NCBI GenBank assembly: GCA_965215275.1
Contig: OZ244044.1
Location: forward strand, 1,696,001-1,760,000
DNA length: 64,000 bases
Source: Thermodesulfobacteriota bacterium
GTDB lineage: Bacteria > Desulfobacterota_D > UBA1144 > Nemesobacterales > JAJCZQ01
Reading direction: 5' to 3'
The position numbers were made by a program, and so were the translations under genes. Each line of letters opens with the position of its first letter. Positions within the stretch are counted from its first letter, which is position 1. Of this stretch, positions 1-48,403 are shown one piece after another. Under the pieces are notes generated by a model. It was not told the DNA's origin. It did not search any database and saw nothing but the letters and a program-made list of their open reading frames with translations.

Positions 1-2
1 GA

Positions 3-689
3 GTGGAGGTTCAGTTTGTTTACGAGAAGATAGCTGGAGAGGACAGAGGACTGGACAGAGCGATAGGAATGGATCTTGGAGTAAGGAACAGGATTGCTTT
101 ATCAGATGGGTCGTTTTACAAGGGAACTGAAGTAAGCAGAAAGAAAGACAAAAGAAAGCAGAGAGCAGTTTCAAGAGCTGAAAAAGGTTCCAACGGCAGA
201 AAGAAGAAGGTAAAGCTGCTTGGGAAGGAACGAGCAAGAACAGCAATAAAGGAACATAACAAAATACACAGGTTAACTACAGAACTGTCAAGAGCGTATA
301 ATTTTGTTATATCAGAAGATCTGAGATTAAAGGATATGAGCAGATCGGCAAAGGGGAACGTGGGAGATCCGGGTAAGAAAGTAAAGCAGAAATCAGGATT
401 AAACAGGTCTTTACGGGAACAGCAGTTGGGCAAGGTATTAGATCAGCTTGAATACAAGGTTAAAAGCACTGGTGGCAAGCTGAGCAGGACTCCGGCTCAA
501 TATACGTCACAGACCTGTTCTGAGTGCGGATACAGAGATAAAAGGAACAGAAAAGGAGAAGTATTTAAGTGTGTGTTTTGCGGTCATAAAGACCATGCAG
601 ACACGAATGCAGCTATAAACATTTGCAATAGTGAAAACACGCTATGTCGGGTGGGACAGCCAGACTTGAGCTCCCGATGCAAGCTGTAA
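3..689 (+). CDS. tnpB: TnpB RNA-guided endonuclease, 5' part outside the window
   Basis: RuvC-I GMDLG, RuvC-II ISEDL, zinc ribbon TSQTCSECG...CVFCG, RuvC-III ADTNAA. Confidence 0.93.
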   Translation: MEVQFVYEKIAGEDRGLDRAIGMDLGVRNRIALSDGSFYKGTEVSRKKDKRKQRAVSRAEKGSNGRKKKVKLLGKERARTAIKEHNKIHRLTTELSRAYNFVISEDLRLKDMSRSAKGNVGDPGKKVKQKSGLNRSLREQQLGKVLDQLEYKVKSTGGKLSRTPAQYTSQTCSECGYRDKRNRKGEVFKCVFCGHKDHADTNAAINICNSENTLCRVGQPDLSSRCKL

Positions 690-779
690 ATGTTTTATCA
701 AAAGAGAACGGGGAATTAAGAGGGACTCTGCTTGCAGAACAGTATGTTTAGTACTTGTGTATTAAAGTATATAAGTCCC
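645..779 (+). ncRNA. Putative TnpB omega-RNA scaffold plus element right end
   Basis: Overlaps tnpB 3' end; tcggg/cccga stem; blocks tcgggtgg, ctcccgatg, cgggga and cagaacagtat recur at 47061-47156; ends in aaagtatataagtccc. Confidence 0.55.
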
Positions 780-795
780 TAAACTGTTAGGAACA

Positions 796-3210
796 ATGAG
801 CCTGCCCGTTAAAGTTTCCGTACCGTTACCGACCGACCGAACTTATCACTATACCGTTCCAGACAGTTTTATGAGGACCGTGGAGATCGGAAAGAGGGTA
901 CTGGTACCTTTAAGGAACAGATTGACCATGGGTTTTGTCGTCGGGTTCGGGGACCCTCCCGAGGGTATTGAACTGAAACAGGTCATAGACGTGATAGATG
1001 ACAAGCCCCTTTTTGATGAGAACAGGTTGAAATTTTTCACATGGATATCCGGTTATTATCTATCCTCTCTGGGCACCGTGCTGAAAGCCGCCTATCCAGG
1101 GGGTATGGGAATTTCCCTGAACCGCCGTTTAAAAGTCACTTCAAAAGGCCTGAACAGCCTGGAACAGGGCTCAGGCGGTAAAAAACAAGGTAAAATACTG
1201 AACGTCGTTCACATATCTGAAAGCATCACTCCAAAAAAGCTGTTTGAACTTGTGGACGGCGTGAAATTTGCGGACCTGAACCGCCTTGTTAACAAAGGAC
1301 TTCTGGAATATAACTACCGTCTGAAAAAGCTGAAGCCCAGGTACAGTAAATTTGTAAGTCCGAACGAACGAACTGCCAAGGCACTTGAAGAACTGAAGAA
1401 AAAAATGCCTGCTAAAGCGTCGGTCCTTGAGTTCGTTAAAACCCATGGCAGGATGGAAGCCGATGAACTGAAGGTGATCTCCTCCGGTATCACTTCACAT
1501 ATTAAATGGCTTGAGGAAAGGGGCTTTATCGACGTGGAAACGAAAGAGGTCATAAGGGACCCTTTCAGAGGCATGGAGCACACGCCCGAGGCCTTGCCTG
1601 ATCTGACGATCGAGCAGAAAACCGCTTTAGCCAGTATAGATAAGGCGACCGGTGAGGGTGTACATTCAACGTTCCTGCTTCACGGGGTTACCGGGAGCGG
1701 TAAGACGGAAGTATACATGAGGGCGATCGATTCCGTTTTAAAAAAGGGTAAGGAAGCAATAGTCCTGGTTCCTGAAATATCTCTGACACCACAGCTGGTC
1801 AAGAGGTTCAGAAGCCGGTTCGGGGACAAGGTTGCAGTTATACACAGCCTTTTGAACGACGCTGAAAGGTCTGACGCGTGGAAGGCGGCAATTAATGGGG
1901 ACGTTAAGATAATTATCGGTGCAAGGTCAGCCGTCTTTGCTCCATTTAAGCATCTGGGAATTATCGTCGTTGACGAGGAGCACGAGAATACCTACAAACA
2001 GGAGGACAGGCTTTGCTACAATGCAAGGGACGTTGCAGTTGTTCTTGGCCGTGATATGGGTTCCGTTGTGATACTCGGGTCTGCAACGCCGTCCGTGGAA
2101 TCATACTCGAACTGCCAGAGACGTAAGTTCGAGTATCTCACTCTGCCTCTCAGGATGGGATGCGGCAGCCTTCCTGAAGTTGAGGTCGTGGACATGAGAA
2201 AGCAGAGCGGTCCTGTCTTTTCCAGTATCCTTAAGAGAGAAATAGCAGAGAACTTTGAAAGAAAAGACCAGACCGTTCTTTTTCTGAACAGAAGGGGTTT
2301 TTCCACCTTCCTGATCTATGAGGACAGTGGGGAGATATTTTACTGTCCTAACTGCAGTATCCCTTTTACCTTTCACAGGGCCGACAACAAGATAAAGTGT
2401 CATTACTGCGGAACGTCAGAAGATTTCGGTTTTATGCAGAAAACCGCAAAGTCACCGCTCAGGGGATTAGGTATCGGAACGCAGATGATAGAACACGAGC
2501 TGAAAAACCTGCTCCCTGACGCCAGGATAGAGAGAATGGACAGTGACTCAACGGGAGGAAAGAACAAGTTCCTGGAACTGTATAAAAGACTGGAAAGAAA
2601 GGAAATTGACGTTCTGATCGGTACGCAGATGGTTGCAAAAGGACATGACCTGCCAGGCGTAACGCTCGTGGGAGTGATATCGGCTGATACCTCGCTGAGC
2701 ATTCCGGACTTCAGATCGGGAGAAAGGACCTTTCAGCTTATAACCCAGGTGGCAGGAAGGGCCGGAAGGGGCAGGTCCCAGGGCAGGGTGATCGTGCAGA
2801 CGTATAATCCGGATCATCCGAGCATCCGCTTTGCCAGGTCGCATGATAGTAACGCATTTTTACAGAAAGAGATGGACATAAGGCAGGCTGCGGACTATCC
2901 ACCGTTTTGCAGGCTCGTCGGTTTTAGGTTCAGCGGTACTGATGAGAACGTGCTTATTGAAACGGTGAAAAAGATCGATAAAATAGTAAAAACGGCGATT
3001 TCCGGACTTACGCCGGGAGCAGTGGTAATGCTCGGGCCTTCCCAGTGTCCTGTGTACAAGATAAAAAACAGGTTCAGGTGGCAGATGATACTGAAAGCAA
3101 AACAAATAAAACTTCTGCATGCTTTTTCCAAAAACCTGTATGATGACCTTTTGGTCCATAAGAACAGGATCAGGATCACGATGGACGTTGATCCCGTGAA
3201 CTTCAGTTAG
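796..3210 (+). CDS. priA: Primosomal protein N' (replication restart helicase)
   Basis: GVTGSGKT, VPEISLTPQ, DEEH, GTQMVAKG, QVAGRAGR. Confidence 0.97.
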   Translation: MSLPVKVSVPLPTDRTYHYTVPDSFMRTVEIGKRVLVPLRNRLTMGFVVGFGDPPEGIELKQVIDVIDDKPLFDENRLKFFTWISGYYLSSLGTVLKAAYPGGMGISLNRRLKVTSKGLNSLEQGSGGKKQGKILNVVHISESITPKKLFELVDGVKFADLNRLVNKGLLEYNYRLKKLKPRYSKFVSPNERTAKALEELKKKMPAKASVLEFVKTHGRMEADELKVISSGITSHIKWLEERGFIDVETKEVIRDPFRGMEHTPEALPDLTIEQKTALASIDKATGEGVHSTFLLHGVTGSGKTEVYMRAIDSVLKKGKEAIVLVPEISLTPQLVKRFRSRFGDKVAVIHSLLNDAERSDAWKAAINGDVKIIIGARSAVFAPFKHLGIIVVDEEHENTYKQEDRLCYNARDVAVVLGRDMGSVVILGSATPSVESYSNCQRRKFEYLTLPLRMGCGSLPEVEVVDMRKQSGPVFSSILKREIAENFERKDQTVLFLNRRGFSTFLIYEDSGEIFYCPNCSIPFTFHRADNKIKCHYCGTSEDFGFMQKTAKSPLRGLGIGTQMIEHELKNLLPDARIERMDSDSTGGKNKFLELYKRLERKEIDVLIGTQMVAKGHDLPGVTLVGVISADTSLSIPDFRSGERTFQLITQVAGRAGRGRSQGRVIVQTYNPDHPSIRFARSHDSNAFLQKEMDIRQAADYPPFCRLVGFRFSGTDENVLIETVKKIDKIVKTAISGLTPGAVVMLGPSQCPVYKIKNRFRWQMILKAKQIKLLHAFSKNLYDDLLVHKNRIRITMDVDPVNFS

Positions 3211-46844: not shown

Positions 46845-46904
46845 ATATTAGTGTTACATTAGAGAATTATTAAGAAGAGTTGACAGAAAGGACTTGACAA
46901 ACAC

Positions 46905-47187
46905 CATTATACAACAAGAACCTGTTCTGAATGTGTAAAGGTAAATGCAAAACTGCCACTGTCTCAGAGAGTATTTAACTGTATGTATTGCGGTTATTCA
47001 GAAGACAGAGATATAAACGCAGGTAAAAATATCAATACTCTTAATGAAGGAGACTTCATATCGGGTGGAAATAAGGTAGAAATACTCCCGATGAGTGCTA
47101 AGAGTATTAAATCAAAGAAGATCGGGGATAGAGGAGTTCTGCCATCAGAACAGTATAGGTAGTTTTTAACTTTCCTTTATAAATCCC
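46905..47187 (+). pseudogene. tnpB: tnpB 3' remnant with putative omega-RNA and element end (not in the ORF track)
   Basis: Hand translation HYTTRTCSEC...LSQRVFNCMYCGYSEDRDINAGKNI, stop at 47160-47162; ends tttataaatccc. Confidence 0.85.
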
Positions 47188-47362
47188 TTACATTATTGGA
47201 GCGAAGATTTAATAGGGAATTATGTGTATATAAAGTAAGAATGATCTGTATATCCTGATAGATCTTTGTCAATTAAAAACAGAGAAAGAAGTTAATACCT
47301 GATATTTACAGTAGAACAGAAGTAAAACATGGGGGGGGGGGATTATCTACTTAAAAGCAATT

Positions 47363-48403
47363 ATGTTTAAAAAGTTAAACATAAAAAATTTTAAAGTTTT
47401 AAAAGATTTTACCTGTGATGATTTAAAACCTGTTAATACCTTTTCTGGTAAGAATAATTGTGGAAAGTCAACTTTATTAGAGGGGATTTTCTTATTATCA
47501 GCTTGTTCAAATGCTGCTGTATTAGTTGATAGAATATTTCCGTTTAGGCAAATGACTATCAACCAATCAAGAGACCTGTCTTTCTTCTTTTCTCAGTTAG
47601 ACTTCAGTGAAAAAATTAGCTTTAACGGTACTTTTGAAACTGATAAGATTTATGTGGGCTACTCTCCAGTATTAGAAGATAATAAAAAGATCAATGGTTT
47701 AGATATTGAATACAAATACAACAATCAATCATCTGGCAAGAGCCAGATCAGATATGCTCCTCAAAAAACACAACTATCCGTTCCAGGACTAACTATAGAG
47801 CAACAATCCCCTTTTGTTGTAAATATAGAAGATAATAAATCTTCCAAGATTATTTCGGCAAAAATTCTCAATTCTGGATCATTTACTGAAAGTCTTAAGG
47901 AAGTTATAGAAGTTATAAGAATGGGAAATAAGGGCACATTCCTGAAAGTGTTAAATGATGTGTTTGATGAAGAAATAATAGATGTTTTCCAAGCAGAAAA
48001 TGTGATTGAAGTTTTTCTTAAAGGGATTAAAGAGTCAATTCCTTTGAATTTGTTAGGAGGTGGAATGAATAGAGTAGTTCCTTTGTTGTCATCATCAATC
48101 TCACCGGATTACGAAGTATTACTGGTTGACGAAATAGAAAATGGACTTCATCACTCTGTTATGAAACCCATTTTAGAAGTTCTGTTTCAAGAAATCATCC
48201 GCAGAAAAAAACAAATATTCATAACTACACATAGTGAAGATATATTGAAAGCCATTGCGGAAGTTATACAGGAGAATGAAGATTTTTCAGATAATTATAG
48301 ACATCATTCATTAGTTATAAAAAATGATACTGTTCGTTGTTTTTCTTATAATTCAGAACAATTCTTGACGGCTAGAGAAACTAATTTTGACGTGAGAAAC
48401 TGA
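47363..48403 (+). CDS. AAA/AbiEii-like ATPase
   Basis: GKNNCGKS, LGGG, VDEIENGLH, TTHS. Confidence 0.88.
   Translation: MFKKLNIKNFKVLKDFTCDDLKPVNTFSGKNNCGKSTLLEGIFLLSACSNAAVLVDRIFPFRQMTINQSRDLSFFFSQLDFSEKISFNGTFETDKIYVGYSPVLEDNKKINGLDIEYKYNNQSSGKSQIRYAPQKTQLSVPGLTIEQQSPFVVNIEDNKSSKIISAKILNSGSFTESLKEVIEVIRMGNKGTFLKVLNDVFDEEIIDVFQAENVIEVFLKGIKESIPLNLLGGGMNRVVPLLSSSISPDYEVLLVDEIENGLHHSVMKPILEVLFQEIIRRKKQIFITTHSEDILKAIAEVIQENEDFSDNYRHHSLVIKNDTVRCFSYNSEQFLTARETNFDVRN

Follow-up and report, generated by a model that had tools for sequence, protein, structure and literature searches.

A tnpB gene between IS1595-type inverted repeats

The window analysed here is a 64,000-nt stretch of a Thermodesulfobacteriota genome (contig OZ244044.1, positions 1,696,001 to 1,760,000 of the forward strand), and it opens inside a tnpB gene. 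The 3' half of this gene (3–689, plus strand) encodes the RuvC residues D259, E340 and D435 and a C4 zinc finger, with matches to PF07282, PF01385 and the TnpB profile NF040570 (164 bits against a cut-off of 100); for the profiles NF038281 and NF038280 the protein falls below the cut-off. The full gene encodes 463 aa from an ATG at genome position 1695298, upstream of the window. The three acidic residues, already noted as retained in the original prediction, are invariant across 12 aligned TnpB rows, as are the zinc-finger residues C407, C410, C425 and C428. The subfamily represented by this protein (G000:C1 1695298-1696686, G000 being the window genome) has an insertion of ~70 aa in the N-terminal region relative to other subfamilies.

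tnpB is the sole gene of a 1,553-bp element bounded by IS1595-type terminal inverted repeats (TIRs) with the consensus GGGA(C/T)TTATATACTT. The element runs from the left TIR at genome position 1695227 to the end of the right TIR at 1696779, which is window position 779. The right TIR lies at 756–779 on the plus strand, and its last five nucleotides, GTCCC, are the predicted pseudoknot partner of positions 653–657. A 14-mer of this right TIR is identical to both ends of a transposase element at genome positions 675417–678070. To the right of the element lies the leader of priA, whose ATG is at 796. Four copies of the element, the window copy and three sisters with ~95% identity, are present in the genome.

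A matching left TIR had been expected upstream of the window and is indeed found, at window position -773. The sequence taaactgt, expected directly before it, is absent: the eight nucleotides there are TTGTACAA, with 7 mismatches, and the predicted left target-site duplication fails because this copy has no duplication. Loss is common to the window copy and its three sisters, with 7, 2, 7 and 4 mismatches. Flank shuffling between copies was considered as a cause and rejected, the right flank having no partner end among 266 ends. A joint skipping the element was sought in four DNA runs of one study and none was seen, contigs being by nature unable to show its absence.

A predicted guide RNA scaffold that includes the TIR

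The last ~135 nt of the element are predicted to fold into a TnpB guide-RNA scaffold of which the TIR itself forms part. The predicted omegaRNA scaffold is placed at 647–779 on the plus strand, and the tnpB stop codon (TAA, 687–689) falls within it, giving the multi-stem scaffold overlapping the tnpB 3' end that typifies TnpB omegaRNAs. Three plus-strand helices make up the model. P1 (647–677) pairs TCGGG at 647–651 with CCCGA at 673–677 and presents GGGAC at 653–657 in its loop; P2 (678–736) pairs TGCAAG at 678–683 with CTTGCA at 731–736 and encloses a variable inner region; and P3 (742–772) pairs what had been called the variable stretch with the inner part of the TIR.

Support for these helices comes from comparison across the window's clade, in which 68 of 70 ends could be parsed. 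P1, P2 and P3 are 94–99% paired across the 68 ends (P1, 99%), and when arms were shuffled among distinct types, the observed pairing was reached in 28 of 5000 shuffles for P1, 1 of 5000 for P2 and 0 of 5000 for P3, a test that related sequences inflate. The arms of P2 fall into compensatory types over the same 68 ends, while the P3 column 113:145 has changed on both sides in 22 of 66 rows. In the 66-row alignment 90.5% of cells pair, against 35–47% when the partners are slid, and this alignment understates P1 and P2 because 13 rows are misplaced there. The tcggg/cccga stem on which the original prediction relied is thus real and covaries, and its broader suggestion of a structured scaffold running into the TIR fits three covarying helices of which P3 reaches the repeat.

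The structure is also asymmetric between the two ends of the element. Of 38 and 27 elements compared, 36 and 24 respectively have a right end that folds better than the left one; at transposase-element ends the mean folding energy does not differ. Single sequences fold no better than their shuffled versions (z -1.3 to 0.9), which leaves comparison as the basis of the structure. An Rfam search of window positions 1–1500 returned nothing near the gathering score.

Predicted pairing of the P1 loop with the element terminus

The P1 loop is complementary to the terminus of the element, as GGGAC:GTCCC in the window copy and GGGAA:TTCCC in 41 of the 68 ends. A pseudoknot of TnpB type is predicted from this complementarity; published TnpB structure joins five nucleotides beside the guide to the apical loop of a stem-loop (Yoon et al., PMC10711439, in the portions consulted). 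Covariation between loop and terminus falls short of significance (the observed value is reached in 1072 of 5000 shuffles), and we infer the pseudoknot from invariance for that reason. A complement of the terminal 4 nt lies 60–150 nt inside the element at 67 of 69 right ends, compared with 17 of the 69 left ends and 4 of 18 transposase-element ends.

The TnpB lineages in which this complement occupies the loop of a 5' hairpin are not a single clade. A constrained-tree test on a 32-row tree (12 rows versus 20) gave an AU p of 5e-6 against a single clade, the group having been picked after inspection of an earlier FastTree tree.

A deleted relative elsewhere in the window

A second locus, at 46862–47187 on the plus strand, had been read together with the first as one of two divergent tnpB loci. 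It is instead a 326-bp internal-deletion derivative of a 1.32-kb tnpB subfamily, in which the left TIR is joined to the last 285 bp: the tnpB tail, the scaffold (47061–47187) and the right TIR. Of tnpB only a 3' piece is left (HMM positions 333–390), and P2 and the pseudoknot are partly decayed. The ordered blocks reported as common to both loci are all there, namely tcgggtgg (647/47061), ctcccgatg (671/47085), atcaaa (697/47111), cgggga (709/47123), tctgc (727/47138) and cagaacagtat (735/47146), and both loci terminate in tataa(g/a)tccc, at 779 and 47187. Their local alignment scores 109, compared with 47.6 +/- 5.6 and a maximum of 70 in 2000 shuffles.

The derivative has kept its target-site duplication. 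Its two 8-bp duplications (TTACATTA; plus strand, 46854–46861 on the left and 47188–47195 on the right) match perfectly; GTG lies directly 5' of the left copy, and the right copy is the start of its predicted guide. Farther along, a G run at 47330–47340 lies upstream of an AAA_21/AAA_15 ATPase gene (47363–48403).

A family of elements with ends shared by transposase genes

An iterative profile located 35 copies of the scaffold in the 1.99-Mb genome: 16 follow a near-complete tnpB, 3 follow tnpB fragments and 16 stand without a trace of tnpB. Those 16 may be guide-only remnants. At 17 of 18 scaffold-only or fragment copies there is no duplication pair. Several hits lacking tnpB, among them G000:C1 292581, 323954, 522332, 890683 and others, end in CCG and not CCC.

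IS1595-type ends are abundant, with 240 scoring above 13 bits in the genome compared with 11 on one shuffled strand, and 23 end pairs are flanked by 8-bp duplications. Ends of the same type also bound transposase genes, and a search with the encoded protein retrieves the relatives' PF12762 (IS1595) hits; PF12762 is present in 15 of 18 related genomes. We take ISNwi1 to be the group label for these IS1595-type elements. None of 18 transposase elements carries tnpB, and at 39 of 69 tnpB sites the right-end 14-mer is identical to a transposase-element TIR. Because ends are shared with transposase elements and multiple sites are occupied, the tnpB-only element is likely mobilised by a DDE transposase of the IS1595 family, supplied in trans from another locus. 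The passenger of the transposase element at G000:C1 675417-678070 resembles, by eye, a methylase-HNH fusion and is preceded by a tandem five-residue repeat.

Of 143 tnpB loci from this genome and its order, 74 combine TIRs with an 8-bp duplication in which no more than one base mismatches. Among 120 genomes of the phylum, 29 encode close TnpB homologs (E <= 1e-90): the window genome, 27 of 36 genomes of one genus in another family, and genome G019. Protein-pattern scans of genome and metagenome contigs found only distant TnpBs, none with these TIRs. At two sets of loci (L208/L218/L235 and L196/L264), elements of different TnpB clades hold the same host site in different genomes, in one case offset by one base, as recurrent insertion or replacement would produce.

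A flanking purine and the predicted start of the guide

Flanks were compared at 69 sites (the 74 duplication-bearing loci less 5 site repeats; 128 distant TnpB hits were left out), with a small control of 18 unique transposase-element sites, which came from 68 hits, 48 of them yielding no duplication pair. Immediately 5' of the left duplication stands a purine at 68 of the 69 sites, G at 49 of them; at the mirror position on the right the counts are 32 and 14. In the control, purines number 7 or 11 of 18 and G numbers 1 or 2, depending on orientation, and with both orientations pooled 18 of 36 are purines and 3 of 36 are G. The asymmetry in purines is seen in 18 genomes, with 2 against, and all 55 perfect duplications have the purine. 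Information content is highest at -1 (1.28 bits) and almost nil at duplication positions T4–T8; no motif appears at the 3' end of the duplication.

The motif is only 1–2 bases long and changes with TnpB subfamily. G occupies -1 in 28 of 29 clade-Y relatives, and clade X has G at -1 or -2 in most sites. In the subfamily nearest the window copy, the flank reads ATA, ATA and TAA at three intact sites. Because duplications have been lost, the TAM of the window subfamily rests on these three sister-subfamily sites and on orthologous priA leaders, which in G001 and G002 read (G/A)TA followed by TAAACT and are weakly consistent with it. In the congeneric G001 (L339:600-950), a different IS1595-type end lies ~125 nt upstream of priA.

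We infer that the flanking purine is the TAM of TnpB. A 5' TAM abutting the duplication would have the guide begin with the duplication itself, at 780 in the window copy, and the same start is indicated once the variable stretch and the TIR are assigned to the scaffold. The guide thus most likely starts at 780, in flanking host DNA. From the motif and the pseudoknot position, it is predicted to occupy 780–799 on the plus strand, comprising the right target-site copy TAAACTGT and the priA leader; read from 780, it finds matches of at most 11 nt elsewhere in the genome. Of the three placements offered originally, the flank is the one now favoured; the variable stretch pairs with the TIR, and the TIR terminus is the predicted pseudoknot partner.

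A guide fixed inside the element, in the stretch after CAGAACAGT or in the TIR, and aimed at other elements or a host gene family, is accordingly hard to credit and strikes us as extremely unlikely. It would account for the fall in primary-sequence conservation after CAGAACAGT and for a single match, 13 nt long, to genes of a multi-copy surface-protein family (presumably subtilase-like). That stretch, however, pairs with the TIR through compensatory changes; most query stretches find matches of 13/14, in unrelated places with no common upstream motif; and an internal guide leaves the flank motif unexplained. The 13-nt match was judged to be chance, on no formal statistic.

It is also very improbable that the arrangement follows that of TIR-bounded Fanzors, with the 3' duplication as scaffold, the 5' duplication as TAM and a guide running from 788, even though TIR/TSD Fanzors are so described (PMC10711439 and PMC13565253, section 6.2, in the portions consulted). 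Here the duplication is variable, with almost no information at T4–T8 and the peak at -1 instead, and the predicted pseudoknot ends at the TIR terminus. A fixed A at +1 (27 of 27 in clade X) was considered as scaffold and set aside, since the transposase's preference in flipped orientation matches it (8 of 10). A hybrid promoter as the source of the motif was likewise rejected: a consensus promoter lies inside the left end, and none for priA was found in the right end.

Gene starts and replacement start codons

Many of these elements sit at gene starts on the same strand, and the motif might then be no TAM at all. It could be a by-product of elements surviving mainly where a like-oriented host gene begins, with a start codon or ribosome site ahead of an AT-rich 8-mer; the RNA would be real, but TnpB would bring no site-specific benefit. 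The site of insertion lends this some weight: 32 of 69 tnpB sites are near a same-strand gene start, compared with 4 of 18 transposase elements (a crude test), and in G000 a same-strand ORF lies within 400 nt of 14 of 19 elements, a count with no control set. In relatives with an open downstream frame, the right end supplies an in-frame ATG at 21 of 33 sites, against 9 of 66 for the other frames. Where the start is displaced by up to 13 nt upstream, all 17 of 17 sites obtain an in-frame ATG from the element's right end. These sites span three subfamily offsets, and 14 of the 17 downstream frames match Pfam families, mostly housekeeping, such as QueA, RuvC, MurJ and IGPS. Judging by these frames, elements in relatives often interrupt a housekeeping gene behind its start codon and provide a new in-frame ATG themselves. 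The loci concerned are L059, L064, L067, L088, L090, L105, L191, L193, L196, L202, L206, L208, L220-L222, L235 and L264; among the G000 elements examined no such replacement ATG was found.

The motif nonetheless outlasts the gene-start context. With open-frame sites dropped, the base at -1 is a purine at 36 of 36 sites; a strict filter that also removes start-like triplets leaves purine at 13 of 13 and G at 10 of 13, with flanks that include CTG, CGG and TCG, compared with purine at 18 of 36 in the control. Since the motif survives this filter, start-codon context is not its only source, the strict set being small. In addition, the motif is fixed at exactly -1 in clade Y and shifts with TnpB subfamily, and a G-type TAM with an AT-rich target would by themselves enrich gene starts. 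We therefore regard survival near gene starts as an unlikely source of the motif, if one to be taken seriously, and retain the TAM as the preferred explanation.

Relation to known systems

TnpBs between the TIRs of DDE elements are already published, and the kind is in that sense already known. Altae-Tran et al. (2023, PMC10691335) list six TIR-bounded DDE-TnpB branches (DDE-1 to DDE-6) together with solo copies. Like the present element, these have TnpB between TIRs with its 3' end <250 bp from the element end, and the solo TnpBs have the same ends and are probably mobilised in trans. The main text of that paper names only IS630, and IS1595 occurs once, in the profile list; its consulted parts give no guide boundary, TAM or structure for the DDE branches. 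The present element may overlap one of these branches. The consulted portions of a 2026 review (PMC13565253) list ISL2, IS630 and IS1031 as DDE partners of TnpB and ask, in section 6.2, what explains the scarcity of TnpB alongside prokaryotic DDE transposases and what it could gain there. A search by title and abstract opening found no published IS1595-TnpB pairing and none of this guide geometry.

The nuclease and its RNA resemble those of IS200/IS605 and IS607 elements in the RuvC D-E-D residues, the zinc finger, three stems, a scaffold over the tnpB 3' end, a predicted pseudoknot beside the guide and, as predicted here, a right-flank guide and a left-flank 5' TAM; the ISDra2 (IS200/IS605) TnpB-omegaRNA structures PDB 8H1J/8EXA match at E 9e-16. 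Those families, however, have asymmetric ends without TIRs or duplications, whereas TIRs and 8-bp duplications are present here. Their TAM is also the transposase target motif, while here the transposase elements lack the motif.

Fanzor1 and Fanzor2*, found in eukaryotic TIR/TSD transposons, share with the present elements a TIR absorbed into the RNA scaffold and non-autonomous, nuclease-only elements (PMC10711439 and PMC13565253, consulted parts). Fanzors use the 3' TSD as scaffold and take in the 5' TSD as part of the TAM. In the present elements the motif falls beyond the TSD, itself the predicted guide seed, and the nuclease is a bacterial TnpB with canonical catalytic positions. IS1595 passenger elements such as MTnSag1, tISCpe8 and ISApl4 have TIRs of ~14–25 bp starting with GGG, 8-bp AT-rich duplications and passenger genes (PMC5704250 and PMC12561309, consulted parts). 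They differ in that the cargo here is an RNA-guided nuclease, with an RNA that would have co-evolved with the TIR, and no transposase is present in cis.

A proposed life cycle

Taken together, we think it probable, on sequence comparison, that this is an IS1595-ended element moved in trans, with a TIR-containing guide RNA through which TnpB would cut the empty allele beside a purine TAM. An IS1595 transposase encoded elsewhere would move the element, and transcription from a left-end promoter, a consensus match only, would yield both tnpB and the guide RNA. With a guide that begins with the duplicated eight bases at 780, TnpB would cut the element-free allele next to the short purine TAM. Following excision or allele exchange, break-induced recombination would then restore the element at the cut site or transfer a copy across. 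TAM-adjacent insertions could come to dominate through such copying. Self-cutting would be avoided in the filled allele, where the CCC of the TIR precedes the guide match and the left junction offers only eight matching bases.

Restorative homing of this kind is described for IS605/IS607 in the consulted part of PMC13565253. IS1595 elements form circles (PMC5704250 and PMC12561309, consulted parts), and their excision may be replicative according to the portion of a review consulted. Replicative excision, if it occurs, removes the need for restorative homing and favours either spread from allele to allele or an insertion bias. Transposase elements persist without TnpB at motif-free sites, which counts against this reading.

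TnpB might alternatively bias where elements insert, perhaps by engaging TAMs together with the transposase or a circular intermediate, the motif then marking landing sites. Persistence of transposase elements at motif-free sites would suit such a bias, as would the near-complete enrichment (all perfect duplications, and broken copies and the 326-bp derivative as well). Against this, the AT preference of the transposase is kept, T1–T3 matching transposase elements in flipped orientation; drive or retention can equally give strong enrichment; and no such TnpB-transposase interaction was found in the portions of the literature consulted. We give this bias very little credence and prefer cutting of the empty allele.

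A wider proposal, which we advance tentatively and hold slightly more in doubt than in belief, is that two or more TnpB lineages independently colonised IS1595 ends and arrived at a third, non-Fanzor way of coupling an RNA-guided nuclease to a DDE transposon: a TIR-pairing RNA, the duplication as seed, site-specific drives that fix elements only next to their own TAM and so push them into the 5' ends of housekeeping genes, and replacement start codons evolved there in relatives. For the review's question of what TnpB gains with DDE transposases, the system has a built-in control, in that the same ends occur in the same genomes with and without tnpB and the flank motif accompanies only the former. 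Exact RNA boundaries, a pseudoknot that reaches into the TIR, and very short TAMs of 1–2 bases also follow as predictions. If these hold, the guide and TAM geometry would be new, and the elements would supply compact nucleases able to target widely.

Additional observations

In G019 (L052:369-630, contig G019:C4, minus strand), a tnpB sister to clade X has no detected TIR and the same scaffold. The scaffold is followed by three 39-nt repeats, 66 nt apart, which contain the TATTCCC of the TIR terminus and can base-pair with a stretch upstream of them. No other copy was found in G019, nor a convincing phage match. The locus is possibly a nascent Cas12-like mini-array.

The window genome also encodes a large multi-copy family of proteins of 1000–1200 aa (G000:C1 137735-141157 and many paralogs), which combine a conserved domain at the N terminus with shuffled repeats and a C-terminal motif containing GGGGC.
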